DNA of 64,000 nt from Elusimicrobiota bacterium (GCA_027406905.1 DAHZHT010000005.1:50080-114079), one strand, 5' to 3'. Counted from the first letter of the stretch, positions 31,818-54,040 are shown. The notes: a model not told the origin generated them from the sequence alone. Numbers and translations are program-made.

Positions 31818-31850
31818 AAAACCCGCCGAAAAAATTCAGCGGGTTTTGTT
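31818..31850 (-). terminator. rho-independent terminator downstream of cspA
   Basis: Stem ACCCGC / GCGGGT with a 12-nt loop. T-runs flank the stem on both strands. Confidence 0.6.
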
Positions 31851-31872
31851 TAAGAACGCCTAGTGAAGGCGC

Positions 31873-32076: not shown

Positions 32077-32222
32077 TCCTGTTACTATCCTCTTTATGTT
32101 ACTGACAATGGCCGCGCAATTCGCGGCTGGCCTTTTTGGGGCCTGCTTTTATTATAGCACGAATTTTAGCGATTTCGACGAAAAAACTGTGTAGTAAAAA
32201 TATTGATGTGTTTTAGTCAAAT
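32077..32222 (-). promoter_or_regulatory. probable long 5' UTR and promoter region of cspA
   Basis: About 145 nt of noncoding sequence upstream of cspA. Long structured 5' UTRs are typical of csp genes. No motif was verified. Confidence 0.35.
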
Positions 32223-33725
32223 TTAGGACGCTTCCAAAATTTTTCTCTTGAGGATAACCCTCATTGATCTTCTGGTTTCATCAACGGCGATCTGGCCAAA
32301 TTTTTGTTTAAGCATTTCTAAAAAACCCGGGTCAGAATGGTATTTCATCCAGGCATAATCGCGGAAAGATAAAACCTCTTTTGCGCTCAGATGTTTTGTC
32401 GGCAATGGAAGGGTGTGATACGAATGTTGGGAAAAACCAGAGTAGCTCTTCGGCAGTTCCCAACCCGCTTTTTTAGCCATTCCATGCAGAGGGCTTCCCG
32501 GATAGGCCATCGCGGAATAAAAATTGGCCTCCTCCGTTCTCATTTCAAGCGCCAAATTCAACGTGGCTTGCATGCTTGACTGATCATCCTCCGGAAGGCC
32601 GAAAATATAGTTGGCGATGACGTTAATTCCGTGTTCTCTTATTTTTCTAACAACAGAGCGAATGTCAACGTCCTCAAATCGACCCTTGGTCACATCTTTG
32701 CGCACAAGAGAATTTGCGCTTTCAATTCCCAAGGCCAGCCAGTTGATTCCGGCCTTTTTCATCGTCTCAAGATAGCGATCCTTGACCGTATCCACTCTGG
32801 AATAACACCAAATATTAAAATTGTATCCTCGCTCAATAATAAGCTGGCACAGTTCTAAAAAATGATTCGGATTAAGAACAAAAAGCTCATCGGCAATTTT
32901 GATGTTCTTAATTCCTTGAGAGGCGAAATAATCGAAATCTCTGATAATATGTTTGGGATCCCAATAACGAAAAATAGCGCTCCCATCAGAAAATTCATTT
33001 TTTTGCCGATTGATGATATTGATCATGCAGAAAGAGCATTTCATTGGGCAGCCGAGACTTGTGTAAAGGGCCGCAAAAGGCTGCCTTTGAGATTGATTCG
33101 GATAAGAATGCCAGAGCGAAGTCCTATAATTTTTCATGGGAAGCAAATCCCAGGCGACTCCAGGCAAATCTTTTGGTAAATCTTCCTTGGCCACGATCGG
33201 AGAGGGAGAATTGAAAATGACTTTTCCGTTCTCTCTGTAACCGAGCCCAAGCACTTTGTCCAATCGATCGGAAAGATTTCCAGCTAAAAGGTTAGACAGG
33301 GTGTAAACTCCTTCGTTTTGACAAACAAAGTCTATGCTGGGATGCTTCCCCATCACTTCTTGAGGCAAGGCCGCGACATGTCCACCCACAAAAATAATTT
33401 TAATTTCCGGGAAATTCTTCTTAAGATGATCCGCCAGAGCCGTGGCTCCCTCCATATTCTGAGAACTCGCGGAAGGTTGCTGTCCATAAACCACGAAACA
33501 GGCAAGGCGGGGATTCAGATTTATAGTATGGGAAACGGCTTCATCATCCGTTAAGCGCAATGCTTCACAATCCAAGAGGTCAACGCGGTATCCTTTCATG
33601 CGACAGTGAGAGGCAAGCATTCCGGCCCAGATGGGCGGTTCAATCGCGGAGAAATCCTCGCTTAAATCCTGATAAACGCGATGTCCCGAATTGGAATGAA
33701 TAAAAAGAACATCAAGTTGATTCAT
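32223..33725 (-). CDS. cobalamin (B12)-binding radical SAM enzyme (class-B-like)
   Basis: N-terminal B12-binding Rossmann-like region. CxxxCxxC as CPMKCSFC. 500 aa. Confidence 0.75.
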   Translation of the reverse strand: MNQLDVLFIHSNSGHRVYQDLSEDFSAIEPPIWAGMLASHCRMKGYRVDLLDCEALRLTDDEAVSHTINLNPRLACFVVYGQQPSASSQNMEGATALADHLKKNFPEIKIIFVGGHVAALPQEVMGKHPSIDFVCQNEGVYTLSNLLAGNLSDRLDKVLGLGYRENGKVIFNSPSPIVAKEDLPKDLPGVAWDLLPMKNYRTSLWHSYPNQSQRQPFAALYTSLGCPMKCSFCMINIINRQKNEFSDGSAIFRYWDPKHIIRDFDYFASQGIKNIKIADELFVLNPNHFLELCQLIIERGYNFNIWCYSRVDTVKDRYLETMKKAGINWLALGIESANSLVRKDVTKGRFEDVDIRSVVRKIREHGINVIANYIFGLPEDDQSSMQATLNLALEMRTEEANFYSAMAYPGSPLHGMAKKAGWELPKSYSGFSQHSYHTLPLPTKHLSAKEVLSFRDYAWMKYHSDPGFLEMLKQKFGQIAVDETRRSMRVILKRKILEAS

Positions 33726-33830
33726 GAGCTTTCTGATTTTAGCATACCCTGAAGCCTGAAAATTGTGTTTATCCTTTAATGATATAATAGACTCTATGAA
33801 AGAAATATTTTCCTATCCGGCCTTGCCCTG

Positions 33831-34826
33831 ATGAAGGCTCCTTTTTATTCCTCTCTCTCTAGCGGCATGAGAGATTGGAAGCTCTACCGACTCATGCTTA
33901 AAATCAGGATGTCGGAGCAGAAAATTATTGATATTTATCCGAGCGATAAAATACAGAGCCCCATTCATCTTTCGATAGGACAAGAAGCCGTGGCTGCCGG
34001 TGTTTGTCTCGCCCTTAAATCCAGCGATCGAATTTATGGCACATACCGGGGACATGGAATTTACATTGCAAAGGGGGGAGATCTTGGGAAGATGTTCTCC
34101 GAGCTCTACGGAAAAGAAACCGGCTGTTCCAGAGGAAAAGGGGGATCCATGCATCTCTCCGCTCCGGAAGTCGGATTAGTCGGATGTTCAGCGATTGTTG
34201 GCAGTTTTATTCCCGTAGCCACGGGAGACGCTTTGGCCGCTCAAATGCGAAAAGATTCTCGCGTGGTCTGTTCGTTTTTTGGAGATGGAGCCGTTGATGA
34301 GGGCGTTTTTTTTGAAAGCGTTAATTTCGCCATTCTTAAAAATCTTCCCATTGTTTATGTTTGCGAGAACAATGGCTATGCGATCCACTCAAAAGTTTTG
34401 GATCGCCACAAACAGCCTTCCCTCGCCCGTCTCGTCTCTGGTCTCGGCTTGATTGGAAAACGCCATGATGGGAATGACGCTCCTGTCGTTTTTAAAACAA
34501 TGAGCCAAGCCATCACTCAAGCGCGTAAAGGCAAAGGCCCCGTTTTCCTGGAATATATGACCAATCGATGGCATGAACATGTCGGCCCCGGAACAGATTA
34601 TCAGGAGTCTTATCACTCCCCCAAAGACAAAGAAAATAATTCGCGCAATGACCCCATCAAAAAAATGGAAAAAATTTTGAAAAAACGGAAGGGATTTTCA
34701 CTCAGGGCGGATATTCTCAAGAAAGAAATTCAAAATGAGATAGACCAGGCCGTCAATTTCGCGGAGAAAAGCCCTTTCCCGTCCCTTCAGTCGCTTTATC
34801 ATGATCTTTATGCGGAGTCTCGATGA
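33831..34826 (+). CDS. thiamine-diphosphate-dependent dehydrogenase E1 alpha-like subunit
   Basis: ThDP-binding motif GDGAVDEGVFFESVNFA...CENNGYAI. Similar to pyruvate/acetoin dehydrogenase E1 alpha. Confidence 0.8.
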   Translation: MKAPFYSSLSSGMRDWKLYRLMLKIRMSEQKIIDIYPSDKIQSPIHLSIGQEAVAAGVCLALKSSDRIYGTYRGHGIYIAKGGDLGKMFSELYGKETGCSRGKGGSMHLSAPEVGLVGCSAIVGSFIPVATGDALAAQMRKDSRVVCSFFGDGAVDEGVFFESVNFAILKNLPIVYVCENNGYAIHSKVLDRHKQPSLARLVSGLGLIGKRHDGNDAPVVFKTMSQAITQARKGKGPVFLEYMTNRWHEHVGPGTDYQESYHSPKDKENNSRNDPIKKMEKILKKRKGFSLRADILKKEIQNEIDQAVNFAEKSPFPSLQSLYHDLYAESR

Positions 34827-35854
34827 AAAGGATGAATTACGGCCAAGCTATTCGTTCGGCGCTTCTCCATTCCATGGAACAAGATTCCTCTATTTTTATC
34901 ATGGGAATTGGAGTTGACGATCACAAGGCTGTTTTTGGAACAACGGCTGGATTGGTTGGGCGTTTTGGGAGAAATCGCGTTTTTGACACCCCCATTTCAG
35001 AATCTGGAATGACGGGCATCGCCATAGGAGCGGCCTTGGCGGGCATGAAGCCAATCCATATTCATATTCGCTCCGATTTCCTTTATCTTGCCATGGATCA
35101 GATCGCCAACATCGCCGCCAAGTGGTCTTCCATGTTTGGAGGCAACGCTTCCGTCCCGTTAGTCATTCGCTCCATCGTTGGACGAAGTTGGGGGCAAGGG
35201 GCGCAGCATTCTCAAAGCTTGCAATCGCTCTTTATGCATATTCCAGGCCTTAAGGTTCTCATGCCGACAACACCTTCCGAGGCGCAAGGCCTTCTTATCG
35301 CGGCGATCCAAGATCCTAACCCCGTACTAATTTTTGAGCATCGGCTTCTCTATGATATTATCGGAGATGTTCCCGATACGCCGACTGCGTTGCCGCTTGG
35401 CCGCGCGATAATTCGCCGAAAAGGAAGCGATATGACTCTTGTCGCCGGATCATATATGGCGGTAGAAAGCTTAAAGGCCGCAGAGTTTCTGTCCAAACAT
35501 GGCGTGGAGGCGGAAATTGTAGATCCAGTGTCTCTTGTCCCCCTGGATGAAAATAGAATTTTAGCATCCGTCGCAAAAACGGGGAGGGTCATCGTTATTG
35601 ATTCCAGCTGGACCACTTGCGGAATGAGCGCCGAGATCGCCGCCCTTATCGTTGAAAAAGGATTTCATTTCCTCAAAGCTCCGATACGCCGTCTTGGAAT
35701 GCAGCCCGTTGTCTGCCCCGTGAGCAAACCCCTGGAAGCAGCTTTCTATCCTAACGCAAAACTGATTGCCGCAGAGGCATTAACAATGCTGGGACGGGAT
35801 TTCCCAAAAACTCCCGCGCCTGAATTGCTCAACACGTTCAAAGGACCTTTTTAA
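34823..35854 (+). CDS. E1 beta-like (transketolase-type pyrimidine-binding and C-terminal domains) subunit
   Basis: Similar to 2-oxoacid dehydrogenase E1 beta. 4-nt overlap with the E1 alpha gene. Confidence 0.8.
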   Translation: MKRMNYGQAIRSALLHSMEQDSSIFIMGIGVDDHKAVFGTTAGLVGRFGRNRVFDTPISESGMTGIAIGAALAGMKPIHIHIRSDFLYLAMDQIANIAAKWSSMFGGNASVPLVIRSIVGRSWGQGAQHSQSLQSLFMHIPGLKVLMPTTPSEAQGLLIAAIQDPNPVLIFEHRLLYDIIGDVPDTPTALPLGRAIIRRKGSDMTLVAGSYMAVESLKAAEFLSKHGVEAEIVDPVSLVPLDENRILASVAKTGRVIVIDSSWTTCGMSAEIAALIVEKGFHFLKAPIRRLGMQPVVCPVSKPLEAAFYPNAKLIAAEALTMLGRDFPKTPAPELLNTFKGPF

Positions 35855-35855
35855 C

Positions 35856-37028
35856 ATGTTGCGCTATTACCTTGCTGAAGATACTATTAACCATTCCGAT
35901 GTTGACCGGCTTATCTCTTGGCTTAAAACCTATCCGCGCCTGACCAAGGGAGAAGTGACCCTTGATTTTGAGAACAAATGGGGACAATGGCTCGGGCGCG
36001 AATATTCCATCTTTTGCAATTCCGGCTCTTCCGCCAATCTTCTTATGTTTTACGCCCTTCTTCTCTCAAAGCGTTTAAAAAATAAAAAAATTATCGTCCC
36101 AAGCGTTGGCTGGGTCACTTCAGTGGCGCCAGCCATTCAATTCGGTTTTGAGCCCATTATGTGTGAGGCCGATCCTGAAACATTTGGCCTTGATCTTTCT
36201 CACCTGGAAATCCTGCTCAAACGTCATCGCCCCGGGGCGGTCATGCTTGTTCAGGTCTTGGGCGTTCCCCACAAAATGGACGAAATATTGAAACTTAAAA
36301 AGCGCTATGGGTTTCTTCTGCTTGAAGATGCCTGCGCCGCCGTTGGCGCTGAGTATCATGGAAACAAAGTGGGAACATTCGGAGATATGGCCAGTTTTTC
36401 CTACTATTTTGGGCACCAATTTTCCACGATTGAAGGGGGAATGGTTTCAACGAACGATAAGCACCTGGCAGACCTTTTGTTGATGTTGCGCAGTCACGGC
36501 TGGAGCAAGGATTTAGATGCGACAACTCATAAAAAATTAATTCGACAATATCGTGTTGATGATTTCCACAGTCCGTTTGTATTTTATGAGCCGGGGTTTA
36601 ATCTCCGATCAACCGATCTTAACGCCTATATTGGATTAGGCCAGATAGAAAAACTGTCCATGATCATAAAGGCTCGCCAAAAAAATCACTCTCAATATTT
36701 AAATCGCCTCGGTGATTATTTTTACACGCAAAAATGGGACAAAGAATCTCGCGTTTGCAGCATTTCATTTGGTCTTCTCGCAAAAAACAGAAGTGAGCGC
36801 GCGGCGGTTGTCTCGGCCCTTAACTCCCATGGAATTGAAACTAGAATTTTCTCCGCTGGAAACTTGGGCCTTCACCCTTTTTGGGTCAAGCGATACGGCA
36901 AGGCAAGTTTTCCTTTCGCCGATCGAATTCACCACACGGGATTTTTCCTTCCCAACAACCCCTCGCTTTCAGCCAAAAACATTGATTTTATATCGGATGT
37001 CGTTCTTGCCGCCGCTTTAAGAACATGA
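35856..37028 (+). CDS. DegT/ColD-family PLP enzyme, predicted nucleotide-sugar 3-dehydratase (catalytic Lys position replaced by His)
   Basis: Segment VGTFGDMASFSYYFGHQFSTIEGGMV...LRSHGWSKDLD resembles the ColD/E1 dehydratase subgroup of DegT proteins, where His replaces the Schiff-base Lys. Confidence 0.65.
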   Translation: MLRYYLAEDTINHSDVDRLISWLKTYPRLTKGEVTLDFENKWGQWLGREYSIFCNSGSSANLLMFYALLLSKRLKNKKIIVPSVGWVTSVAPAIQFGFEPIMCEADPETFGLDLSHLEILLKRHRPGAVMLVQVLGVPHKMDEILKLKKRYGFLLLEDACAAVGAEYHGNKVGTFGDMASFSYYFGHQFSTIEGGMVSTNDKHLADLLLMLRSHGWSKDLDATTHKKLIRQYRVDDFHSPFVFYEPGFNLRSTDLNAYIGLGQIEKLSMIIKARQKNHSQYLNRLGDYFYTQKWDKESRVCSISFGLLAKNRSERAAVVSALNSHGIETRIFSAGNLGLHPFWVKRYGKASFPFADRIHHTGFFLPNNPSLSAKNIDFISDVVLAAALRT

Positions 37029-37111
37029 AGAAAATTGCCCGCAAAACAAATCGCGTTCTCATTACTGGAATTGGGGACGGAATGACCAAGATGAGACGAA
37101 GGAAATCATAG
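37025..37111 (+). pseudogene. 28-codon stub of a Rossmann-fold (NAD(P)-binding) gene truncated by the IS remnant
   Basis: MKKIARKTNRVLITGIGDGMTKMRRRKS*. The ATG overlaps the stop of the ColD-like gene (ATGA). GxGxxG-like ITGIGDG is followed by immediate divergence and a stop. Confidence 0.5.
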
Positions 37112-37950
37112 GGCGAGTTCCGTTATGCCGATTTCAATCGTGAATCCGCTCAATTGGGGTTTTTTCACCGGGAAATAATTAGTTGTTGAGGGGCACTGGT
37201 GTCCGGGGAAAATCAGAACTCGAAGCATAGTTGAGGTTCCGTATTCCGCAACATGGATAATTTTCTCTCCGGTAGCCGCAGCAAATCGATCAGGCTGAGG
37301 CGATCCAAAAGGGTATTCTGAACGAGCTGTTGGAGCGGACAAGCGAGCGATGAAAGCGACATTGAAACTTGATGTAGGCCAGGAGCAAAAAGTACGTCAT
37401 GGACGCCCAAACCTGCGTGAGCACGGCGTTCTTGGAGGTGCCGAGGAACGTCTTTATCCGAAGGTGCGGCGTGATCCACTTGAAGAAAAGCTCCAGACAG
37501 AGGTCGATAGTGCCGGAATCGAAAGCGCACACGGGGTTTTTGAAGCGAAATTGATGATTGGGGGCGATGGCCTGGCAGCGCTCCAGAAGCTGGTAGAAGA
37601 GTTTCTCCATGATGCGGGAATCGCGTTTGGCGTTGGCGTCGGCCAAGGTCGATCGCTTCACGGCGGGCAATCCCCAGGTGGTAGAGCTTGGGCTCCTGGG
37701 TCTCCAGGGCGGTCTGGATGTCGCACAGGCTATTCTTGTTGGCGGCTTGAGCATACAGCAGCACCGTCAGTTGGTTCCAGGTCGAGAACTTTTTGACGTA
37801 ATGGTCTCCGCCGAAGTCGGAAACGGCTTGGTCGAACTGATGTCGGGGCAAAAGCGTCAACAACTGGTTCATGATTGTGTTAGAATACATTTGAAGAGTC
37901 CTCCGTCGGTATATTTAGCTTGCTCAGCACAAGTATTCTGCCAATGATGG
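37112..37950 (-). mobile_element. IS4-family insertion sequence remnant (3'-truncated)
   Basis: Two consecutive minus-strand reading frames give an IS4-family transposase N-terminal half (LLPRHQFDQAVSDFGGDHYVKKFSTWNQLTVLLYAQAANKNSLCDIQT; RSTLADANAKRDSRIMEKLFYQLLERC). No catalytic DDE C-terminal half. No inverted repeats identified. Confidence 0.65.
37213..37890 (-). pseudogene. frameshifted, truncated IS4-family transposase
   Basis: Covers ORFs 37213..37890 and 37290..37754, which are in different frames. Together they span about 250 aa, where a full-length transposase is more than 400 aa. Confidence 0.65.
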
Positions 37951-37998
37951 AGGATTCTTCGCTTTTAACCGGACACGAGTGATTGAGGGGCCAAATTT

Positions 37999-38937
37999 AT
38001 GAGAATGCGTATTTTTTTGACTGGCGGTAGCGGAATGGTTGGCAGAAATTTTCTTGAACATTCTGCCATAAGCGGATTCGATGTACTCGCCCCACACAGG
38101 AATGAGCTTAACTTGTTGGATTTTCAGGCAGTGACGGCATACGTTCGCGCACATAACCCTGATATTGTCATTCATGCCGCCGGTCGAGTGGGCGGTATTG
38201 AGGCCAATATGCGGGAGCCTGTTCGCTTTCTGATGGAAAACATGGATATGGGGCGCAATGTTGTTTTGGCGGCGCGTTCCATCGGAGTAAAGAAATTGTT
38301 GAATCTGGGGAGTTCTTGCATGTATCCTAGGAATGCCCCTAATCCACTGCATGAAGACATGGTGCTGAGCGGCGAACTAGAGCCAACCAATGAAGGATAT
38401 GCGCTTGCCAAGGTTGTTGTCGCGCGTCTATGTGAATATATTTCTCGCGAGAATCCGGAATATAAATACAAGACATTAATCCCGTGCAATCTCTATGGCC
38501 GCTATGACAACTTCGAACCATCGCGATCGCATTTGATGCCGGCAATTATTCATAAAATCCAAGAGGCTAAGTCCTCTGGATCAAGTGAAGTCACAATATG
38601 GGGTAATGGTATCGCGCGGCGAGAATTTATGTACGCTGGCGATTTGGCGGATTGCTTGATTGAGTCCGTTCGTCGTTTTGATAGTCTTCCCAATGTTATG
38701 AATGTGGGCGTTGGAGAAGATGCCAGCGTTGATGATTACTACAAAACCACTGCTGAAGTTATCGGTTATGGAGGCAAATTCACGCATGACTTAACCAAAC
38801 CGGTTGGAATGATGCGTAAGTTAGTATCGACGCAGAGGGCACAAGAGTGGGGATGGCGCGCTACAACTTCTTTGCGCGAAGGAATCAGGAAAGCATATGA
38901 CTTTTATGTGCAAGCATCAAAATTGAGAGTGGTATAA
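37999..38937 (+). CDS. fcl: GDP-L-fucose synthase family 3,5-epimerase/4-reductase (Fcl/ColC-like)
   Basis: Colinear with Fcl: MRIFLTGGSGMVGRN, LGSSCMYP, LEPTNEGYALAK, NLYGRYDNFEPSRSHLMPA, TIWGNGIARREF. Confidence 0.85.
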   Translation: MRMRIFLTGGSGMVGRNFLEHSAISGFDVLAPHRNELNLLDFQAVTAYVRAHNPDIVIHAAGRVGGIEANMREPVRFLMENMDMGRNVVLAARSIGVKKLLNLGSSCMYPRNAPNPLHEDMVLSGELEPTNEGYALAKVVVARLCEYISRENPEYKYKTLIPCNLYGRYDNFEPSRSHLMPAIIHKIQEAKSSGSSEVTIWGNGIARREFMYAGDLADCLIESVRRFDSLPNVMNVGVGEDASVDDYYKTTAEVIGYGGKFTHDLTKPVGMMRKLVSTQRAQEWGWRATTSLREGIRKAYDFYVQASKLRVV

Positions 38938-39046
38938 ATGGAAAACTATTACACTCTAGCCAGCACGACATGGAATGAGTCGGAACACTGGCGTATTCGA
39001 GTGGAAAAAAGATGGAAAGAGGCTTAGGGTTCTGCGGTAGAATAAA

Positions 39047-39991
39047 ATGAAAAAAGAAAAAATACTCATAACGGGGGGAGCGGGATACCTTGGATCGGTG
39101 ATGACTCGCCTTTTCCTTGAAACAGGCTATCACGTGCTTGTTCTGGATAATTTTATGTATGGACAATCCAGCCTTCTGGATTTTTGTGTTTTTGATTCTT
39201 TTGAAGTTGTGCGTGGAGACTGCCGCGATGAAGCTCTTATGAAAGGCCTCATCAAGGACGTGGATGCGGTCATTCCCTTGGCCGCATTGGTTGGCGCCCC
39301 TATCTGCAACCGCGATAAAATCGCCGCTGCGACCACCAATAGAGACGCGATCCAAATGCTCTGCCGCATAGCCGCCCCATCTCAAAAAATTCTTTTCCCC
39401 GTCACAAACAGCGGATATGGAATAGGAGAGAAAGGGAAATTTTGCACCGAGGAGAGTCCGCTGCGGCCAATTTCTTTTTACGGCCAAACAAAGGTTGAAG
39501 CGGAAAAAGCCATCTTGGATCGAGGCAATGGAATAACTTTTAGATTAGCGACAGCCTTTGGCGCTTCCCCCCGGATGCGAATGGATCTCCTGGTCAACGA
39601 TTTTGTCTACCGCGCGCTGGTGGACCGAGCTCTCATAGTGTTTGAGGGACACTTTAAGCGTAATTATATCCATGTCAGGGATATCGCGCGAGTTTTTCTT
39701 CATGGATTAAATAATTTCGAGACGATGAAAAATCAAACCTACAACGTGGGTCTTGAAGATGCCAACCTTTCAAAAATTGAGCTCTGCGCTCTTATTCAAA
39801 AAACTCTTCCGCAATTTGTCTATCACCAAGCGGAGATAGGAGAAGATCCCGATAAGCGCGATTACATCGTTTCTAACGCAAAAATACTCGCCACGGGATT
39901 TAAGCCCCAATGGAGCATCGAACGCGGAATCAAGGAACTCATTAAATGTTACACCGCTCTTGGAAAGGTCAATCTCTATGGAAATATTTAG
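39047..39991 (+). CDS. NAD-dependent epimerase/dehydratase (extended SDR)
   Basis: ILITGGAGYLGS Rossmann motif and YGQTKVEAEK (YxxxK). Lacks the T(D/E)xVYG motif of 4,6-dehydratases. Confidence 0.7.
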   Translation: MKKEKILITGGAGYLGSVMTRLFLETGYHVLVLDNFMYGQSSLLDFCVFDSFEVVRGDCRDEALMKGLIKDVDAVIPLAALVGAPICNRDKIAAATTNRDAIQMLCRIAAPSQKILFPVTNSGYGIGEKGKFCTEESPLRPISFYGQTKVEAEKAILDRGNGITFRLATAFGASPRMRMDLLVNDFVYRALVDRALIVFEGHFKRNYIHVRDIARVFLHGLNNFETMKNQTYNVGLEDANLSKIELCALIQKTLPQFVYHQAEIGEDPDKRDYIVSNAKILATGFKPQWSIERGIKELIKCYTALGKVNLYGNI

Positions 39992-39997
39992 AACCCG

Positions 39998-40993
39998 ATG
40001 ATCATCACTCGAACTCCCTTTCGCATGTCTTTTTTTGGCGGCGGAACGGATTATCCCGATTGGTATCGTGAGCATGGCGGAGCGGTTGTCGCCGCGACTA
40101 TCGACAAATATTGTTACATCACCTGCCGCTATTTGCCACCGTTTTTTAATTACAAGAGCCGCATTCTCTATTCAAAGATAGAATTAGTCGAAAATAATTC
40201 AAAAATTGAACATCCCGCCGTCCGCGCCGTTTTATCCGAATTGGGCATCGATTCAGGATTAGAAATTCATCATGATGGAGATCTTCCCGCCCGCACGGGT
40301 CTTGGTTCAAGTTCGGCTTTTCTTGTAGGCCTTCTCCATGCTATTTCCGCTTTAAAAAATCGAATGTCAACAAAAATGGAACTGGCAAAGACGGCGATAC
40401 ACGTTGAACAAACCGTGCTGAAAGAGAATGTCGGCTGCCAAGATCAGGTCATTACCGCCTTTGGCGGATTACAACGCATCGATTTTCAAAAAAGGGGCGA
40501 TATTCATATCAACCCCATTGTTATCAGCGAAGAGCGGCTGAAATTCCTGGAAAGTTCGGTCCTTCTCTATTTTACCGGCTTTTCCCGTATTGCCTCGGAA
40601 ATTGTTAAAGAGCAACTACAAAACATTCCTCAAAAAGCCCACGAGCTTTTACGCATTCGCGAGATGGTCGATGAATCAATTGAAATCCTCTCTGGAAATG
40701 GCGATTTAAACGAGTTTGGCAAACTCCTGGATGAAAGCTGGGAGCTTAAAAGAAGGCTCAGCTCCAAGGTTTCCTCCCCTGCTATTGATGAAATCTATAA
40801 AGCCGCGAAATCAGCCGGGGCTTTGGGCGGAAAAATCATGGGCGCCGGCGGCGGGGGATTTATGATGTTGTTTGCCCCCCCCGAAGCTCATCCGCGCATT
40901 CATGAAAAGCTAAAACATCTTTTAAGAATCCCCTTTCATTTTGAAAACGAGGGCAGTCACATTATTTACTATCACCCCAATGGAGGTCGCTAA
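39998..40993 (+). CDS. GHMP-family sugar kinase (heptose-7-phosphate kinase HddA / fucokinase-like)
   Basis: N-terminal TPFRMSFFGGGTDYPDWY and GHMP motif PARTGLGSSSAFLVGLL. Confidence 0.7.
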   Translation: MIITRTPFRMSFFGGGTDYPDWYREHGGAVVAATIDKYCYITCRYLPPFFNYKSRILYSKIELVENNSKIEHPAVRAVLSELGIDSGLEIHHDGDLPARTGLGSSSAFLVGLLHAISALKNRMSTKMELAKTAIHVEQTVLKENVGCQDQVITAFGGLQRIDFQKRGDIHINPIVISEERLKFLESSVLLYFTGFSRIASEIVKEQLQNIPQKAHELLRIREMVDESIEILSGNGDLNEFGKLLDESWELKRRLSSKVSSPAIDEIYKAAKSAGALGGKIMGAGGGGFMMLFAPPEAHPRIHEKLKHLLRIPFHFENEGSHIIYYHPNGGR

Positions 40994-41693
40994 CGCCATC
41001 GAAGTAGATGCCATAATTCTTTGCGGAGGGCAAGGCCGCCGCCTCGTGAAAGTTCTCCCTGACTTGCCTAAAGCTCTTGCCCCTATTGGAAACAAATCTT
41101 TCCTCGATATTCTACTCGACTACGCTGTCCAAGAAGGACTGCGGCGTTTTATTTTTTGCCTTGGACACCGCGCAAGCGCCATAGAAGAGAGATTAAGCGC
41201 GCGGCAGGATTGCGATATCGTTTTTTCAAAAGAGACCGTTCCGCTTGGGACCGCTGGCGCTCTCAAATTATGCGAACCATTGAGAAGAAGTCGAACATCC
41301 CTAGTGATGAATGGCGACTCTCTATGCAATTTCAACATCAAGGAGTTTCTTAAAGCCCATGTAGAAAATAACGCTTCGGCAAGCGTCGCGGCGGTCATGG
41401 CGCCCGATAGAGATGACGGCGGATTTATCGAGTTCGCAAAGGATTATCAGATCACGCGATTTAATGAAAAATATGGAAGCGCGAAATATATTAACGCTGG
41501 AGTTTACGCGCTCAACTCCGAGCTTTGGGGGAAAATTCCCCCAGAGCGACCCTGTTCCATCGAGAAAGACGTCTTCCCGCAACTCGTGGGACACGGCCTT
41601 TTCGCCTGGCCCACTCACGCGCCACTTTTTGACATTGGAACTCCGGAACGCCTTGAGGCTTTTCGGCTCTTATATGCTAGTAGAGATCCTTGA
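40980..41693 (+). CDS. sugar-1-phosphate nucleotidyltransferase (HddC / GDP-sugar pyrophosphorylase-like)
   Basis: AIILCGGQGRRL...LPKALAPIGNKSFLD. About 238 aa. Overlaps the kinase gene end. Confidence 0.7.
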   Translation: MEVANAIEVDAIILCGGQGRRLVKVLPDLPKALAPIGNKSFLDILLDYAVQEGLRRFIFCLGHRASAIEERLSARQDCDIVFSKETVPLGTAGALKLCEPLRRSRTSLVMNGDSLCNFNIKEFLKAHVENNASASVAAVMAPDRDDGGFIEFAKDYQITRFNEKYGSAKYINAGVYALNSELWGKIPPERPCSIEKDVFPQLVGHGLFAWPTHAPLFDIGTPERLEAFRLLYASRDP

Positions 41694-42876
41694 TTTTATC
41701 GCAGACATGCTCCGCGAATGGAATCGCACAGGTAAATCCGGGCGAAACGGCGTTGAGCACGTGCAGGGAGCGATTGTCTCCTTCGACGACAAAATCCATC
41801 TCGAGCTTCATTGTCTCGATATTCAACAGCTGGGCGCGCATGCCTGGCAGCCCCCATTTCCTGAAATTTTCAGGCCGCACTCCTTTCAATAAACGCCCCG
41901 CCAAAGCGGCCATTCTCTGCGCGGAATACTTTTGGAATTCCTCCAGGGCCAACCTCTTAAAATCAAAATCTGAATAAAAGAGAAGTCCTATATTTCTTGC
42001 CGTGATTTCAAGCATTTCTTTAAGAGAAAAGCCCTCCAGGCCCGCGTACTGCTCTCTCCAAAACGCCGGGATGGCCGTTGGACCAATATGGACGTTTCCA
42101 TTCGCCGCGAGGGTAAAGTGAACTCCGAGAAAGGGATTGCGGATATCGGGCACGGGATAGACATTCGTCCGAACGGAACCGACAGGCTCTGTCGAATTAA
42201 GATAAAGCCCTTTAAAAGGCACGATGCGGTGACGCTGTGAAAACCCAAAATCGCGAGCGATTTTATCAGCATAGAGGCCCGCCGCGTTGACCACATATCC
42301 CGCTTTGATAACTCCGGCGCTCGTGCGTACGCCATTAGGACCCACGGACAAATAGGCTTCATTTTCTCGAATATCGACCCCCTCGCTGATTGCGTCTTGG
42401 CGCAGAGATTCCATGACTTGAAACGGGTCGACCGTGGATGTCGTAGGGGAGAAAAGGGCTTTTTCATAAGTCAAGACTCGAGGTTCTATCTCTTGAGCTT
42501 CTTTCGAACTCAACATCCAAAGCGGAACCCCATTGGCTTTTCCTCGACGCATTAGTTCCTCAAGGGCCAGAATATCCTCGGGACCCTGGGCGACGACCAG
42601 TTTCCCGCAGCGGTTGAGTGGAATATTTTTATCCTCGCAATAACGAGTCAAGGCTTTGTTCCCCGATCTAGCCAATTGAGCTTTTAAGCTGTCGGGAAAA
42701 TAATAAAATCCGGCATGGATGACGCCGCTATTGCGCCCGCTGGCATGGAGGCCGCATCTCTTCTCTTTTTCCAGAACGGCGACGGAACAGTCCGGATGGA
42801 GAACTTTAAGTTCTCGGGATATTTGTATCCCGATGATTCCACCGCCGATAACGACAAAATCCCGCGATTCTATCAC
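41677..42876 (-). CDS. FAD-dependent oxidoreductase, L-2-hydroxyglutarate oxidase (LhgO)-like
   Basis: DFVVIGGGIIGIQISRELKVLHPDCSVAVLEKE...GLHASGRNSGVIHAGFYY, consistent with the LhgO/DAO family. Confidence 0.7.
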   Translation of the reverse strand: MIESRDFVVIGGGIIGIQISRELKVLHPDCSVAVLEKEKRCGLHASGRNSGVIHAGFYYFPDSLKAQLARSGNKALTRYCEDKNIPLNRCGKLVVAQGPEDILALEELMRRGKANGVPLWMLSSKEAQEIEPRVLTYEKALFSPTTSTVDPFQVMESLRQDAISEGVDIRENEAYLSVGPNGVRTSAGVIKAGYVVNAAGLYADKIARDFGFSQRHRIVPFKGLYLNSTEPVGSVRTNVYPVPDIRNPFLGVHFTLAANGNVHIGPTAIPAFWREQYAGLEGFSLKEMLEITARNIGLLFYSDFDFKRLALEEFQKYSAQRMAALAGRLLKGVRPENFRKWGLPGMRAQLLNIETMKLEMDFVVEGDNRSLHVLNAVSPGFTCAIPFAEHVCDKIKDLY

Positions 42877-42882
42877 GATCTC

Positions 42883-44127
42883 TCAGGAATTTTGCTGGAG
42901 TTCGGAAGATGGAAATATCCGCGAAAGAGCGGCTCCGGAGAAAATAATCAATAGGGCTAAGGCTGGAAGCTGGTAGCGATTGTCCCAATACCCGACGAAA
43001 ATGTGAAGACTGTAGTAGCAAAATCCCGCAAAGGCAAGAGTAGAAGCTATTGTCCAATTTGTACGCCGTAAATACATTTCCCAAAAGGCAAGAATCAAGG
43101 TCGCTAGTTCAAAAACCCAAAGGACAGCCCTAATCACAATGGGCCCCCAACGTCCTTCTTGGCGATAAACGGAAATGGGTTGATCAATCCCGAACATCGC
43201 CGAATGGCTGGTCAACCAAAAATGAATCAGGCGAGACGGGAGTTTAAAGATCAATCGCGGCCAATTGGCTTTATAATTATTCAAGGCCATCCGATAAAAT
43301 TCGGCATCCGTCTCGATCTCGCTTCTCCCCACGGCCACCTGTTTTTGGACTGCCCCAACGTCGAGAGGGCGGGAAAGCTGCGAACCGCACCAAAGCGCGG
43401 GCCCTCCCCCTGTCGCCACCGGAATCCAAACTCCCATGACCTGTTTGTTTCTCAAAGACCAAGGAAGAAGCGTTAAGTAGGCGCACAGGAGAACTCCCGC
43501 AAGATGCCGCAACAGGCGCGGTTTTTTATGATGGAAAAGAAGAATAAGGAATGCGGCTCCTGGAGGAAATAAAATAAGGCTGGGCCGACAGAGAATCGCC
43601 AGTCCAAGCACAAAGCCCGCGAAAGCAAACAACCACTCCAGATTTTTCTTTAAATTTGACTCAAAAGCGTAAAGTAAAAGACAAAGGGCGGACGACCATG
43701 TCATGATAAACAGAGTCTCCGTCATAATTTCCGCGGTATAAGCGATAAAAACAGGATGAAGAGCGTAAAAGGCCGCCCCAAAAATCGCTCCCCTGCGTTC
43801 ATTGAGAGCATAAAGACCAAAAAGATAGATAAGCCCGATCGTTATTGTGTCTAAGAATGCTTGCGCTGCGCGCGCGTAAAACCACGGCCTATTGGAAAGC
43901 ATGACAAAAATAGAAAGGAATGCCGGATATAAAGGAGGGCGTATCGCCGTAGGCTGATTTCTAATCATGGAAAATTCGCCATGGAGGGCTATATTTTGGG
44001 CAATGCCGGCATACTCTACGCTATCTCCCAACAAAGGCGCCGATCTTTTTACCACCACCATGCTGATTCGAAGGATAAATCCCATGACCAAAACAATAAA
44101 CAAAGGATTTCTTAAAAAATTTTTCAT
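42883..44127 (-). CDS. GT-C fold glycosyltransferase (family 39 ArnT/PMT-like), second copy
   Basis: Polytopic membrane protein. Start set at MKNFLRNPLFIVLVMGF, whose ATG overlaps the GT2 stop (ATGA). Confidence 0.6.
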   Translation of the reverse strand: MKNFLRNPLFIVLVMGFILRISMVVVKRSAPLLGDSVEYAGIAQNIALHGEFSMIRNQPTAIRPPLYPAFLSIFVMLSNRPWFYARAAQAFLDTITIGLIYLFGLYALNERRGAIFGAAFYALHPVFIAYTAEIMTETLFIMTWSSALCLLLYAFESNLKKNLEWLFAFAGFVLGLAILCRPSLILFPPGAAFLILLFHHKKPRLLRHLAGVLLCAYLTLLPWSLRNKQVMGVWIPVATGGGPALWCGSQLSRPLDVGAVQKQVAVGRSEIETDAEFYRMALNNYKANWPRLIFKLPSRLIHFWLTSHSAMFGIDQPISVYRQEGRWGPIVIRAVLWVFELATLILAFWEMYLRRTNWTIASTLAFAGFCYYSLHIFVGYWDNRYQLPALALLIIFSGAALSRIFPSSELQQNS

Positions 44128-44840
44128 TTCGATCCCTTCCGCCGCCAATAGAAAATTTCTCGAAGGATCTGTGCCATATAGGCTAAACCCCAACGCACAA
44201 TTTGGAGCTTCCGGTCTCCGCCTAGGCGCTTTGGCTCATCTCCAGGAATTTCCGTCACTCTCAGACGTGTTTTTGCGCAGCGGACGGAAAGGATAGGTTC
44301 CCAACTGATGCGTGTACAAAAAAATTTCTCCGGCGTGTAGGTCGAGTCCTTATCTAAATCAAGCAACCCAATAAGGTCTTTCTTATACGCGCGATACATG
44401 ACCATGGCGTCAGTGTATTGTCCGCCAAAAAGGAAGTTGATTGTATAGGTAAAAAGCCAATTGCCAAAAGCGGTCATGAAATCATCATCTTCGCTTTTGG
44501 CGCCGGCCAGGTAGCGAGACACAATCACCATGTCATAACCTTCTTTGATTTTCTCAATCAATGGGGGAATTAATTCTGGGAGAGAATTCCCATCAGGGCT
44601 GAAGGTGATAATGACATCACCTTTGATTAAGCTCATTGCTTCCAAATAGCCATGGCGCAACCCGCGCTCTTTCTGAACGATAACATCAAATCCCTGAGAA
44701 TGACAATACCCCACCGTGCCATCATTAGAGCCGCCATCAAGGACTAAAATTTGGTCAACCCAACGGCGATCAATAAGCGGCATAATTTGACGCATCCCAA
44801 TTTCTTCATTTAAGACTGGAACCAAAAGGGTGGTCTTCAT
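44124..44840 (-). CDS. GT2 polyprenyl-phosphate sugar synthase (ArnC/DPM1-like)
   Basis: VPVLNEE...ILVLDGGSNDGT...DxD-type motifs. 238 aa. Confidence 0.75.
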   Translation of the reverse strand: MKTTLLVPVLNEEIGMRQIMPLIDRRWVDQILVLDGGSNDGTVGYCHSQGFDVIVQKERGLRHGYLEAMSLIKGDVIITFSPDGNSLPELIPPLIEKIKEGYDMVIVSRYLAGAKSEDDDFMTAFGNWLFTYTINFLFGGQYTDAMVMYRAYKKDLIGLLDLDKDSTYTPEKFFCTRISWEPILSVRCAKTRLRVTEIPGDEPKRLGGDRKLQIVRWGLAYMAQILREIFYWRRKGSK

Positions 44841-45203
44841 GGACTTTAGGATTAGATCTGACTCTGGATAAAACTATTCCGCGACGCCTCCGGATTTCGA
44901 ATCCGCGTTTTCGGCTGGGATAAGCAGGTCCAATTCGATTCCCTTAACGACCGCCTCTGTTCCATTGGATCCGTGGGGTTTTTGGAGCACATTGTTTAGG
45001 CCATTCTGAATTGGTTATTGTTGATGCTGATATTATTTAGCATTATCATGTGTTGTTGAGCAAATTTTTTATGCATTAAACATCAGCTTGCGGAATCGCC
45101 GTCCCAGGCAAATTCCGGATTATGGGCATTCATCCAAAAGACAAACACTCCCCGGATAAGAAGCGCTACCAGAAATATAAACCCGGCAATGGGAAAAGGT
45201 TTT

Positions 45204-45707
45204 TTAGTCTCTAGGAGGCTCAAACTTTTCCTTCAACCTTTTTGAGATATCTGGCGGCACGAAAGAATCGACGGAAGCCCCCAGGCGGGCCACTTCCTTG
45301 ACCATCGAAGAGGCGAAATAGGTGTATCTCTCATCGGGCATCAAAAAAACCGTCTCAACGTCGGGGTAAAGGGTCCGATTAAAAGAGGCCAACTGAAACT
45401 CATAATCCATATCGCTGACCACTCTTAAACCCCTAATCAACACCTGAATTCCTTTTTCGCGAAGATAATCCACCAATAGCCCCGAAAAGACGTCCGCTTC
45501 GGCGTTGGGAATTTTATTGATCGCCCCGCGAAGCATCTCGAGGCGCTCTTGAGCCGAAAAAGTGTGTTTTTTGGCCGGATTATCCGCCACGGCCACCAGC
45601 ACCCGCTCGAACATTTTTGCGGCGCGAAAAACAATATCTAAATGCCCCAAGGTGGGAGGATCAAAGCTCCCGGGATAGACCGCAATACGGTTCTTTAAAT
45701 TAGGCAT
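45204..45707 (-). CDS. coaD: phosphopantetheine adenylyltransferase
   Basis: IAVYPGSFDPPTLGHLDIV. Confidence 0.9.
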   Translation of the reverse strand: MPNLKNRIAVYPGSFDPPTLGHLDIVFRAAKMFERVLVAVADNPAKKHTFSAQERLEMLRGAINKIPNAEADVFSGLLVDYLREKGIQVLIRGLRVVSDMDYEFQLASFNRTLYPDVETVFLMPDERYTYFASSMVKEVARLGASVDSFVPPDISKRLKEKFEPPRD

Positions 45708-45765
45708 ATGGAGAATCTACAAAAAAATAAGCGGGAAAGGCTGGCTTTTTGCTAACATCGTTTCA

Positions 45766-46974
45766 GTGCTTATTTTGGAATCGGTCGCTCTCGCTTTCGC
45801 GTTTCTTATGTCATTATTTACTTTTATGCGCTTGTTTTCCCGACATTCCAATCGTCAAACCACAGCAAAAAATAATTCCGCGGACGTTCTGGGTTGGGAA
45901 AAATTAGATCAGCTTTTGGATATGCTTTCAACTCTCCAAGAAGAAGGCGTCTCCTATTCGGGACTGGTTTCGAGAGAAGATTTCGGAAAAGCGGTTTTGA
46001 AAGCCTCCTGTCGGCTGATGAACTGCGAAAGAGGCTCCATCATGCTCTGGGAAGAAAGCGGCGGGCATCTCAAAATCGTCGCGGCCATTCCGGAGACGGG
46101 AAAACCCCAGACTCTTTTTCTTAAACCCGGAGAAGGAATCGCCGGAGAGGCGTTCTCGAAAGCTCAGACCATTTTCATCGAAGACCCTTCTTCCGACCCG
46201 CGATACCTGTCTTCCCAAAACCACGCTCATCCGTTTTTATCAATGCCGCTTTTAATTCAGTCAAAGCCGATAGGAGTTCTCAATCTTCATGCCACCGGAA
46301 ACGCGGCTCCTTTTAAAGACCATAACGCGAAATTTCTAAAGATTCTCGCTTCCGAAGCGGCCATCACATTCCACAATTTAGAACTCTTTGAGCGTTTGGA
46401 AACTTTTTATCTTGAAATGGTCAAGACTCTCGCCCGCGCGGTTGATTCCAAAGATCACTATACCCATGAGCACTCCGACCGGGCTTCCAGCAGGGCTAAA
46501 AGGCTGGCTAAGGCCCTTGATCTTGATCCGGTCTATGCCCGCTACGTCGAATATGCGGCGCTACTCCACGATATCGGGAAAATCGGCATTGATGAAGCCA
46601 TTCTCAACAAACCTGGGAAATTGACGGCGGAAGAATACGAAGAGATGAAAAAACATCCCTTGATCGGGCATCAAATATTGGCTCCGGTCAAGTTTTTAGG
46701 CCCGGTCGCGCAGATGGTTCTCCACCACCAAGAATGGTATGACGGACGCGGATATCCCAGCGGCCTTAAAGGAGAAAAAATACCGCTCGGCTCTCGCATT
46801 GTCGCCGTCATAGACGCTTGGGACGCCATGACCTCCGATCGCCCCTACCGAAAAGCCTTGGGACGGGAAAAAGCCATCGCGGAATTGCAAAAAGGGGCGG
46901 GAACGCAATTTGATCCCGCCGTGGTCGCGGCCTTTCTTAAAATAGAAGCCGAAGAAGGACTTGCCTTTAAGTAA
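45766..46974 (+). CDS. GAF-domain HD-GYP phosphodiesterase
   Basis: N-terminal TM helix, a GAF-like region, then HD-GYP motifs HSDRAS, HDIGKIGI and HHQEWYDGRGYP. Confidence 0.75.
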   Translation: MLILESVALAFAFLMSLFTFMRLFSRHSNRQTTAKNNSADVLGWEKLDQLLDMLSTLQEEGVSYSGLVSREDFGKAVLKASCRLMNCERGSIMLWEESGGHLKIVAAIPETGKPQTLFLKPGEGIAGEAFSKAQTIFIEDPSSDPRYLSSQNHAHPFLSMPLLIQSKPIGVLNLHATGNAAPFKDHNAKFLKILASEAAITFHNLELFERLETFYLEMVKTLARAVDSKDHYTHEHSDRASSRAKRLAKALDLDPVYARYVEYAALLHDIGKIGIDEAILNKPGKLTAEEYEEMKKHPLIGHQILAPVKFLGPVAQMVLHHQEWYDGRGYPSGLKGEKIPLGSRIVAVIDAWDAMTSDRPYRKALGREKAIAELQKGAGTQFDPAVVAAFLKIEAEEGLAFK

Positions 46975-47666
46975 TGCTGACTATCGTGCCTACCCCCATC
47001 GGGAATCTAGGCGATATGGGGACCCGCGCGCTTGAAGCACTCAAAAAAGCTTCTATCATTTATTGCGAAGACACCCGAAGAACGCGAATCCTTACTTCTT
47101 ATTTTGGAATTTCATCTCCGCTTAAACGATACGACGAATATAACCCCAAAATTTTAAGGCAAATGATCGATGAGCTCAAAAGCGGAAAACATCTCGCCTT
47201 GGTTTCTGACGGCGGCCTTCCAGGCATCTCCGACCCCGGGCACAAGATCGTGGCCTTGGCCCGAAGAGAAAAAATAGAAGTTTCGGCGATTCCCGGCCCC
47301 AGCGCGGTCGTAACGGCCCTGGCCGCTTCCGGCCTTCCCGCCGATTCTTTTATTTTTTTGGGTTTCTTACCCAGAGCCCCCGGAAAACGAAAGCGTATTT
47401 TGGAAAGTTTTGTCACTATTCAGAGAACCATCGTTATTTACGAATCTCCTTTCCGCGTCAAAAATCTGATGAGAGAGCTTTCGGATGTTTTTATTCCGAC
47501 GGCCCAGTGCGCGGTCGCCCGAGAAATTTCTAAAATACATGAGGAGTGGTTTTATGGGGCCCTCAGCGAGGTCTCAGACCAATTACAAGCGAGAGAAATA
47601 GTTCTTGGAGAGTTTGTCGTGATGATTCATCCCAAAGGAGACTTATTTCATGGGCCTCAAAGTTGA
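46974..47666 (+). CDS. rsmI: 16S rRNA (cytidine1402-2'-O)-methyltransferase RsmI
   Basis: Tetrapyrrole-methylase fold. IVPTPIGNLGDMG...IIYCEDTRRT. Confidence 0.85.
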   Translation: MLTIVPTPIGNLGDMGTRALEALKKASIIYCEDTRRTRILTSYFGISSPLKRYDEYNPKILRQMIDELKSGKHLALVSDGGLPGISDPGHKIVALARREKIEVSAIPGPSAVVTALAASGLPADSFIFLGFLPRAPGKRKRILESFVTIQRTIVIYESPFRVKNLMRELSDVFIPTAQCAVAREISKIHEEWFYGALSEVSDQLQAREIVLGEFVVMIHPKGDLFHGPQS

Positions 47667-52775: not shown

Positions 52776-53357
52776 ATGCCGAAAGCGACCCTGTCTTGCC
52801 CCAATCTAATAGATTGTTCCCCTCAAAGCCCGCGCATTAGCGGACCATGGGCTATTTTTACGACCCCTTATTTCCCGCTGGCGATGACGACTCTTACCGC
52901 CGGAAGCGCGATCTGGGATGGAGCCCAAACGCGCTTTGGAAAAACTCTTTGGCAAAGTCTTGATTCCGCCGTTATCGCCTCTGTTTCCAACACCGGAATG
53001 AAATATGCCTTCCAAAGGGCCCGGCCGACCCAGGACCTCGGAGCCAACGCCTGGTTTTCCGGGCCTCAGAGCCAAAGTTTTCCCTCCAGCGACGTGTCTA
53101 ACACTGCGGCCCTTGTCTCTCCTTTTATTTATGAATACGGATCGGATCATCCGATGGTGTATCTTTTGACTCTTTTGCCCGTGGCGGACGCGGCAGCCCG
53201 AGTAGAAGCGCGCGGGCATTACCCGACAGACACTATTGGCGGCATGGCCTTAGGTTTTGCCAGCGGCTGGGCGGCCAGGCATTTTTTCAAATCGCCGTTT
53301 ACCTTGCAGATTATTCCGGGGAGAGACTGGTCTGTTGGAATATCGCGAAAATTCTAA
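52776..53357 (+). CDS. PAP2-family phosphatase (lipid phosphate phosphatase-like)
   Basis: KYAFQRARP (KX6RP) and ARVEARGHYPTD (SRX5HX3D-like). Start moved from the ORF-track TTG at 52425, which overlaps accC, to the first internal ATG. That coordinate is plus or minus 1 nt. Confidence 0.6.
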   Translation: MPKATLSCPNLIDCSPQSPRISGPWAIFTTPYFPLAMTTLTAGSAIWDGAQTRFGKTLWQSLDSAVIASVSNTGMKYAFQRARPTQDLGANAWFSGPQSQSFPSSDVSNTAALVSPFIYEYGSDHPMVYLLTLLPVADAAARVEARGHYPTDTIGGMALGFASGWAARHFFKSPFTLQIIPGRDWSVGISRKF

Positions 53358-54040
53358 TTAGCGGAATCTTCTAGGACAAATTGAAAAGTCGTCCCGCCGC
53401 AAACGATAATATCTCCGTCCTTTAAGAGGGTAGCGGCGGTGATTTTCTCGCCATTGACAAGGGGATATCCGGAAACGACCGGAATTAAGACATACCCCTC
53501 GGGTTTGCGGTAAATAGAAGCGACCACCTCGGGAGCCGAGCCGAAAAACCCCGTTCCTTTAATGGGGATTTGAACGCGATCGGATTTGCCGATATAGGTT
53601 GAAAGTCCTTTAAGCTCGTAATCAGGCGGGCCCTCCAAGCCCTTTAACACCCGCAAGCGTCCGAGTTTGGACGGAGTTTTGGCCGACTGAGCCAGAATTT
53701 CGGATTGTTTCTCCGGAGTTAGGAAAACAGTTTTATCTCCCGCTGCGGGAGCGGGATCTCGGATAAAGACCAATGAGTGTTTGGCGATTCCAATAACGTC
53801 TTCATGATGAAGCCCGCATTTTTTAATTCGCTTTTCATTGACATAGGTTCCATTGGTCGAATCGAGGTCCTCGACATAATAGGTTTCTCCTTCCAGCGTA
53901 ATTTTACAGTGATTGGAAGAGATGGCGGGATTGTCAATGACAATATCGTTATTCGGGGCTCTCCCAACCAGGAGAGGGCCTTTATTTAAATTGATTTCCT
54001 TAAGCACCGCCACGTTAAACTTAAGAAGAAGCTTTGGCAT
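53354..54040 (-). CDS. tandem FHA-domain protein
   Basis: N-terminal FHA: LLVGRAPNNDIVIDNPAISSNHCKI...YVEDLDSTNGTYVN. A second, degenerate FHA-like domain lies in the C-terminal half. Confidence 0.75.
   Translation of the reverse strand: MPKLLLKFNVAVLKEINLNKGPLLVGRAPNNDIVIDNPAISSNHCKITLEGETYYVEDLDSTNGTYVNEKRIKKCGLHHEDVIGIAKHSLVFIRDPAPAAGDKTVFLTPEKQSEILAQSAKTPSKLGRLRVLKGLEGPPDYELKGLSTYIGKSDRVQIPIKGTGFFGSAPEVVASIYRKPEGYVLIPVVSGYPLVNGEKITAATLLKDGDIIVCGGTTFQFVLEDSAN

Follow-up and report, generated by a model that had tools for sequence, protein, structure and literature searches.

In a 64,000-nucleotide stretch of an Elusimicrobiota genome (GCA_027406905.1, DAHZHT010000005.1:50080-114079; hereafter the window), we examined a FAD flavoprotein gene of the LhgO/L2HGDH family and found that its product probably serves as a cosubstrate recycler for a Cj1427-type sugar-nucleotide dehydrogenase encoded in the same glycan cluster. 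Judged from its sequence, the flavoprotein is most likely a genuine L-2-hydroxyglutarate (L-2-HG) oxidase or dehydrogenase that was recruited into a surface-glycan gene cluster. A preliminary description of this DNA had placed the gene on the minus strand behind a family 2 glycosyltransferase (GT2) and a glycosyltransferase of the GT-C fold, and we confirmed all three open reading frames at the expected coordinates, with sequences that match a public protein collection exactly. As described, the GT-C start overlaps the GT2 stop as ATGA, and a spacer of 6 nt (GAGATC) lies between the GT-C gene and the flavoprotein gene. What had been missed is a convergent plus-strand operon (37999..41693), which at its 3' end shares 17 nt with the 3' end of the flavoprotein gene. 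The genes of both strands are as follows.

44124..44840, minus strand: DPM1/ArnC-like GT2, putative polyprenyl-phosphate sugar synthase (238 aa; ATG at 44840; PF00535, E = 3.5e-14)
42883..44127, minus strand: minimal GT-C glycosyltransferase, PMT_2 (414 aa; ATG at 44127; PF13231, 59.8 bits against a cutoff of 26.1)
41677..42876, minus strand: LhgO/L2HGDH-family FAD flavoprotein, proposed recycler of L-2-HG to alpha-ketoglutarate (399 aa; GTG at 42876; PF01266)
40941..41693, plus strand: sugar-1-phosphate nucleotidyltransferase, ManC/HddC-like (PF00483; alternative ATG at 40980; 3' end in the 17-nt overlap)
39998..40993, plus strand: GHMP sugar kinase, HddA-like (PF00288, PF08544; HddA model NF049969 at E = 1.5e-40, under the equivalog cutoff)
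39047..39991, plus strand: Cj1427-like short-chain dehydrogenase/reductase (SDR), proposed nucleoside-diphosphate-sugar C4-dehydrogenase with alpha-ketoglutarate as oxidant and L-2-HG as released product (PDB 6vo6/6vo8)
37999..38937, plus strand: GDP-L-fucose-synthase-like SDR, epimerase/4-reductase type of the Cj1428 class (NF047922, PDB)

The assignment of the flavoprotein draws on domains, profiles, structure matches, and active-site residues. The DAO domain (PF01266) spans residues 6-393 (E = 4e-54), the GxGxxG motif reads GGGIIG at residues 11-16, and the best PDB match is Drosophila L2HGDH (8w75, E = 4e-58). Residues S50, H54, Y240, H253, and R347 align with Ser88, His92, Tyr289, His302, and Arg393 of that enzyme (dmL2HGDH), which bind 2-oxoglutarate in its structure and whose mutation abolishes or impairs activity (PMC10726252). 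The counterparts of His253 and Arg347 help to tell L2HGDH from GlpO and DAAO, and the FAD-binding fold of L2HGDH has been described as GR2, not the PCMH/VAO type (PMC10726252). The preliminary description had suggested weighing the flavoprotein against LhgO and sugar oxidases by profile; the NCBIfam LhgO model (NF008726) scored 307.1 bits against a cutoff of 299, and Pfam and NCBIfam scans returned DAO-type domains only, with no VAO/PCMH-type FAD domain of the kind found in DprE1-type oxidases.

The flavoprotein shares the DAO fold, the GxGxxG motif, and all five side chains that bind L-2-HG or 2-oxoglutarate with LhgO of E. coli and P. putida and with Drosophila (8w75) and human L2HGDH. It differs from them in belonging to a distinct clade, the members of which are 47-74% identical to each other across phyla and share only 31-38% identity with the canonical LhgO genes of this study. 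Its surroundings also differ, being a glycan cluster rather than csiD-gabDTP or lhgR; the published analysis of lhgO neighborhoods names only csiD, gabT, gabD, gabP, csiR, and lhgR (PMC8206213).

The candidate partner is the SDR at 39047..39991. It matches C. jejuni Cj1427 (6vo6/6vo8) over its full length (E = 1.7e-114, 385 bits), with the runner-up PDB match at 1e-22, and the two proteins are 55% identical over 310 residues. Cj1427 is a GDP-heptose C4-dehydrogenase with a tightly bound NADH that is reoxidized by alpha-ketoglutarate in a ping-pong mechanism, yielding L-2-HG (PMC10680097), the substrate of the flavoprotein family. This use of alpha-ketoglutarate by Cj1427 is an in vitro finding.

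To gauge how often the two families occur together, we collected 80 metagenome loci with homologues 66-77% identical to the window SDR, which dereplicated at 95% nucleotide identity to 68. An LhgO-family gene is present in 28 of the 80 loci (26 of the 68 after dereplication), and in 17 of the 80 it lies directly upstream of the Cj1427-like gene in the same orientation, with a gap of about 47 nt where this was measured. Thirteen loci extend for 8 kb or more on both sides, and nine of these contain LhgO. These genes are 31-38% identical to the window flavoprotein, and the full five-residue site is kept in all 25 that are full length. Three were scanned against NF008726 and all passed: two canonical ones at 540 and 552 bits, and that of locus L092 at 360 bits. 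Two or more LhgO clades take part in the association, which recurs in several gene orders.

These counts bear on a simpler explanation, namely that the flavoprotein is a housekeeping lhgO for general L-2-HG repair or for glutarate/lysine catabolism that sits beside a glycan cluster by chance. Differing neighbors across phyla would fit it, and so would the Nitrospira members of the clade, which adjoin an Aminotran_3 gene much like the known gabT-lhgO neighborhoods (PMC8206213). However, by our estimate, chance would place a single-copy gene in an interval of this kind in roughly 1% of loci, far below the 9/13 and 17/80 observed, and the recurrence with different LhgO clades and gene orders also speaks against coincidence. 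We therefore consider this explanation unlikely.

A second alternative is that the flavoprotein acts on another 2-hydroxy acid or polyol of the pathway, such as a heptose side-chain hydroxyl or the product of a thiamine-dependent step. Points in its favor are the marginal LhgO score of the window clade, a type 2 glycerol-3-phosphate oxidase model as the runner-up among the families, and the uncharacterized enzymes of the cluster. Against this, the two residues that help to separate L2HGDH from GlpO and DAAO are conserved, and canonical LhgO genes of at least 540 bits hold the same position in other clusters. We regard a different substrate as improbable, somewhat more so than a housekeeping role.

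Under the recycling hypothesis, the Cj1427-like SDR would oxidize C4 of a GDP-sugar, and its bound NADH would be reoxidized by alpha-ketoglutarate, freeing one L-2-HG per turnover. The flavoprotein would then convert L-2-HG back into alpha-ketoglutarate and pass the electrons to quinone or O2. This oxidation would regenerate the cosubstrate, pull sugar oxidation forward, and clear a potential inhibitor. Downstream, a ColD-like enzyme could remove the 3-OH of the keto-sugar, and an E1 alpha/beta pair, a B12-binding radical SAM enzyme, and the fucose-synthase-like reductase could modify it further; these cluster genes are described below. Once complete, the sugar would be loaded onto polyprenyl phosphate by the DPM1/ArnC-like GT2, and from this carrier the minimal GT-C would move it to an acceptor on the outer side of the inner membrane. 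We infer all of these steps from homology, and the chemistries of Cj1427 and L2HGDH are the ones that rest on published biochemistry.

A shuttle of this kind has precedent with the other enantiomer. In P. aeruginosa, WbpB carries a tightly bound NADH and converts alpha-ketoglutarate to D-2-hydroxyglutarate, and loss of D2HGDH lowers O-antigen (PMC8651671). SerA and D2HGDH are coupled in the same manner (PMC9504171). The proposal for the window resembles these P. aeruginosa and E. coli systems in combining a dehydrogenase with tight NADH, alpha-ketoglutarate as the oxidant, and a flavoprotein 2-hydroxyglutarate dehydrogenase as the recycler. It departs from them in that the intermediate would be the opposite enantiomer, L-2-HG, and that the partners come from unrelated families (SDR instead of GFO_IDH_MocA, and a DAO-type instead of a PCMH-type FAD protein). 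In addition, the recycler is encoded inside the glycan cluster and not elsewhere in the genome. We found no L-enantiomer counterpart built into glycan clusters in the searchable literature, a scope that does not include the primary Cj1427 papers, and an open-access review of C. jejuni does not mention the fate of the L-2-HG that Cj1427 releases.

The presence of LhgO genes inside Cj1427-type operons of several phyla offers independent genomic evidence that alpha-ketoglutarate is the physiological oxidant and that a dedicated recycler is needed. If the hypothesis is correct, catalytic amounts of alpha-ketoglutarate together with LhgO should sustain sugar oxidation, and loss of the recycler should cut glycan yield and raise L-2-HG. 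LhgO-like genes within glycan clusters could then be annotated as cosubstrate recyclers.

We also approached the association from the side of the flavoprotein, using 80 genome loci with window-clade flavoproteins that are 46-65% identical and a few more from a protein look-up (84 counted). SDRs are the commonest neighbor family, present in 17 of the 84 loci and adjacent in 12. Four of them are 54-61% identical to the window SDR, in L004 (Elusimicrobia), L011 (Caldisericaceae), L018 (Terrimicrobiaceae), and L048. The remaining ones are 27-34% identical to it; in L006, the single one tested, Cj1427 is the best PDB match (7e-30 against 4e-15). The closest flavoprotein homologues, at 74% identity (L088, L169, L170), converge on nucleotidyltransferase, GHMP kinase, and Cj1427-like genes, as in the window.

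SDRs in the 27-34% range stand directly downstream of window-clade LhgO genes in L006 (11258..12286), L007, L012, L021, L032, L037, and L075, which belong to Nitrospira, Gammaproteobacteria, Chlorobiaceae, and Campylobacterales. An RfbF-like glucose-1-phosphate cytidylyltransferase is often nearby, and these loci may represent a CDP-sugar version of the same shuttle.

The GT2 and GT-C genes gave a different picture. The preliminary description had read them as a lipid-carrier glycosylation pair, and this holds up on the PDB relatives of the GT2, the fold of the GT-C, and the conservation of the pair: an orthologous GT2 lies beside the GT-C in all five neighborhoods of GT-C orthologues that we examined, at 69-73% identity in L166, L168, L173, and L174, where it is directly upstream, and at 46% in L167. 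The same neighborhoods include a B12 radical SAM gene in four cases and the E1 alpha/beta pair in four, three of which also have a ColD-like gene. L166 and L168 carry Cj1427-like, GHMP kinase, and nucleotidyltransferase genes in one operon, and heptose-cluster genes occur in four of the five. A DAO-family gene was found in none of the five. Conservation of the three-gene order in relatives, the check suggested in the preliminary description, was thus not seen, and we rejected GT2-GT-C-flavoprotein as a conserved unit. This gene content indicates that the GT2-GT-C pair belongs to the same modified-sugar cluster and that the flavoprotein is an accessory of that cluster. tblastn and phmmer searches of the window GT-C against 165 loci matched only L092 and L002, and weakly.

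The same data weigh on the idea of a DprE1-like step, in which the flavoprotein would oxidize or epimerize the polyprenyl-phosphate sugar from the GT2 before the GT-C transfers it. The 6-nt spacing after the GT-C gene suggests co-transcription, and in L171, a related Elusimicrobiota contig, a 65%-identical flavoprotein again stands beside a PMT_2 GT-C and a GT2. On the other hand, the protein has a DAO/GR2 fold with all of the L-2-HG-binding residues, among them the Arg responsible for binding of the C5 carboxylate; it is missing from all five GT-C-orthologue neighborhoods and tracks Cj1427-like genes instead. In L088, moreover, the gene translationally coupled upstream of the closest flavoprotein homologue encodes a GT4, not a GT-C, and phmmer scores of 2e-8 and 6e-4 show that the GT-C and GT2 of L171 are not orthologous to those of the window. 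We consider action on a lipid-linked sugar very improbable, and this part of the preliminary description is not supported. The best explanation of co-transcription with the GT2 and GT-C genes is common cluster membership rather than lipid-linked-sugar chemistry. The other suggestion made there, plain 2-hydroxyacid metabolism, had the chemistry right and overlooked the probable service to the adjoining sugar-nucleotide pathway.

Several observations count against the proposed role in recycling. The flavoprotein clears the LhgO cutoff by a narrow margin (307 against 299 bits). Most members of the window clade occur in other contexts: the Nitrospira copy follows the Aminotran_3 gene, and in Bacteroidales (L054 2634..3725 and 13 other loci) a window-clade LhgO gene is followed immediately by an Ldh_2-family gene resembling sulfolactate, malate, or ureidoglycolate dehydrogenase, which makes a second conserved pairing. 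Such contexts would fit repeated recruitment of a general L-2-HG enzyme. L166, L168, and L174 carry the heptose cluster without any LhgO, with a Cj1427-like gene in view in L166 and L168, so in these the recycler would be dispensable or encoded elsewhere. The kinase and the nucleotidyltransferase of the window score under the HddA and HddC equivalog cutoffs (the latter at E = 4e-26 for the HddC model and 9e-32 for a mannose-1-phosphate guanylyltransferase model, also under its cutoff), and the sugar is thus not established. Finally, in L171 the flavoprotein gene is followed by a PMT_2/GT2 pair other than that of the window and by a WbpA/WbpB-like set, with no Cj1427-like SDR found within 10 kb, an arrangement that the recycling explanation leaves unexplained.

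The L171 genes at 1821..12877 lie on one strand and encode the LhgO-like protein, a PMT_2 protein, a GT2, an ADH, a GT2/radical-SAM fusion, a UDP-sugar 6-dehydrogenase, a WbpB-like GFO_IDH_MocA protein, an SDR, and a C-methyltransferase. We considered whether this SDR is a hidden Cj1427 homologue and rejected it. A WbpB-like GFO_IDH_MocA protein as a recurring partner of the flavoprotein was likewise set aside, as it was seen only in L171 and its duplicates.

Returning to the glycosyltransferases, all four PDB matches of the GT2 are dolichyl-phosphate mannose synthase (5mlz, 1e-9) or ArnC, and its best NCBIfam matches, AglJ and a dolichyl-phosphate hexose transferase, are both under their cutoffs. 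The C-terminal transmembrane helices of ArnC and GtrB were not found in its 238 residues, where matches end at about residue 170-227; the protein resembles the short DPM1 type, which is without such helices. A sequence-profile search of the GT-C against the PDB gave no meaningful match, and a fold comparison was therefore needed. The AlphaFold model has a predicted local distance difference test (pLDDT) score of 92.6, and each of its 44 best Foldseek matches in the PDB is a GT-C enzyme (AglB, Pmt4, ArnT, PglB, AftB, ALG). D35, in the motif GDSVEY of the first extracytoplasmic loop, is at least 90% conserved in 26 homologues and is presumably catalytic, by analogy with ArnT and PMT. The family has few members, 21 proteins being 42-55% identical to the window GT-C. 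Orthology to ArnT was ruled out (NF009784, 20 bits against a cutoff of 567), so the protein is a GT-C but not ArnT.

The pair is therefore comparable to ArnC-ArnT, GtrB-GtrC, and DPM1-PMT in joining a GT2 with solved relatives among dolichyl-phosphate mannose synthases and ArnC to a membrane enzyme of the GT-C fold. It differs in that the GT-C has just 414 aa and no soluble periplasmic domain, and the GT2 is shorter than ArnC and GtrB. No flippase gene was identified.

A 40-codon open reading frame fragment (KKPFPIAGFIFLVALLIRGVFVFWMNAHNPEFAWDGDSAS*) lies on the minus strand at 45086..45205, right after the coaD stop and followed by an AT-rich spacer and then the GT2 start. By eye, its translation looks like the first transmembrane helix of the window GT-C together with the GDS loop, and the fragment is probably what remains of the N-terminal part of another, truncated GT-C gene.

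The sugar-modifying genes mentioned above lie at lower coordinates than the convergent operon, together with a transposase remnant.

35856..37028, plus strand: ColD-like 3-dehydratase of the DegT family, dependent on pyridoxal or pyridoxamine phosphate (PDB ColD 2gms, 1.3e-54; RfbH model, 2e-62)
34823..35854, plus strand: thiamine-diphosphate-dependent E1 beta (PF00676, PF02779, PF02780 for the alpha/beta pair)
33831..34826, plus strand: thiamine-diphosphate-dependent E1 alpha (same domains for the pair)
32223..33725, minus strand: B12-binding radical SAM enzyme (PF02310, PF04055)
37213..37890, minus strand: IS4-family transposase remnant (DUF4372, 225 aa; PF14294, E = 2e-25; NF033592 weak)

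The best reading is that 32223..44840 constitutes one glycan cluster of the Elusimicrobiota genome; every named relative of the IF-2 encoded in the window is likewise from Elusimicrobiota. The ColD-like enzyme has a His at the position of ColD His188 (FGHQF against YSHHI). The fucose-synthase-like SDR reaches 310 bits with NF047922, under the cutoff of 500, and matches GDP-L-fucose synthases in the PDB at 6e-77. A two-carbon branch on the keto-sugar may come from the E1 pair, which is co-conserved with the cluster in L088, L092, L099, L166, L168, and L174. The B12 radical SAM enzyme is probably a C-methyltransferase; its gene adjoins GT2/GT-C orthologues in L166, L167, L168, and L174, and in L018 and L164 as well. 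L018, L092, and L166 share cluster genes, and the first two hold all of the components in other orders, L092 with an LhgO of a different clade.

The closest known pathway is that of the C. jejuni capsular heptoses (HddA, HddC, Cj1427, Cj1428, and the HS:5 C3-dehydratase), in which the C3-dehydratase works on the Cj1427 product and turns glutamate into alpha-ketoglutarate and ammonia (PMC10680097). The window has the corresponding Cj1427-like SDR and fucose-synthase-like reductase, and its GHMP kinase, nucleotidyltransferase, and ColD-like 3-dehydratase are further shared features. It differs in adding LhgO, the E1 pair, the B12 radical SAM enzyme, and the GT2/GT-C export pair, and in a kinase and nucleotidyltransferase that fall under the HddA and HddC cutoffs. 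Neither gmhA nor gmhB was identified in the window cluster.

Taken as a whole, the analysis points to an uncharacterized modified-sugar pathway with a very small GT-C. We tentatively propose, with less confidence than for recycling itself, that 32223..44840 encodes an undescribed pathway of variable gene content, found in Elusimicrobiota, Verrucomicrobiota, and uncultured contigs, that may turn a GDP-sugar into a heptose that is 3-deoxy, C-branched, and/or C-methylated. The product would be exported as a polyprenyl-phosphate sugar and attached by the 414-aa GT-C. The cluster would also contain its own alpha-ketoglutarate/L-2-HG shuttle, in which alpha-ketoglutarate from the ColD-like enzyme would serve the Cj1427-like enzyme as oxidant and LhgO would reoxidize the product, wiring sugar-nucleotide oxidation into the respiratory chain; the distant SDRs beside LhgO in Nitrospira and proteobacterial loci would extend the shuttle to CDP-sugars. 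We infer the identity of the sugar, its acceptor, and the roles of the E1 pair and the radical SAM enzyme, while the presence, homologies, conserved residues, and associations of the genes were observed directly.

The IS4 remnant separates the ColD-like gene from the fucose-synthase-like gene, a hint that the cluster was rearranged or acquired horizontally. Positions 30000..47000 gave no match to Rfam, and a scan for promoters and terminators gave generic consensus matches only.

Elsewhere in the window, the minus strand at 14917..18568 encodes a second PMT_2 GT-C (550 aa, 16916..18568), a transglutaminase-like protein (16020..16919), and an enolase-superfamily MR_MLE protein (14917..16023). 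Further along, at 53354..57406 on the minus strand, a gene for a CHASE2 Ser/Thr protein kinase (856 aa) comes before those for a PP2C phosphatase and an FHA-domain protein, in what looks like a compact eukaryote-like signaling operon.

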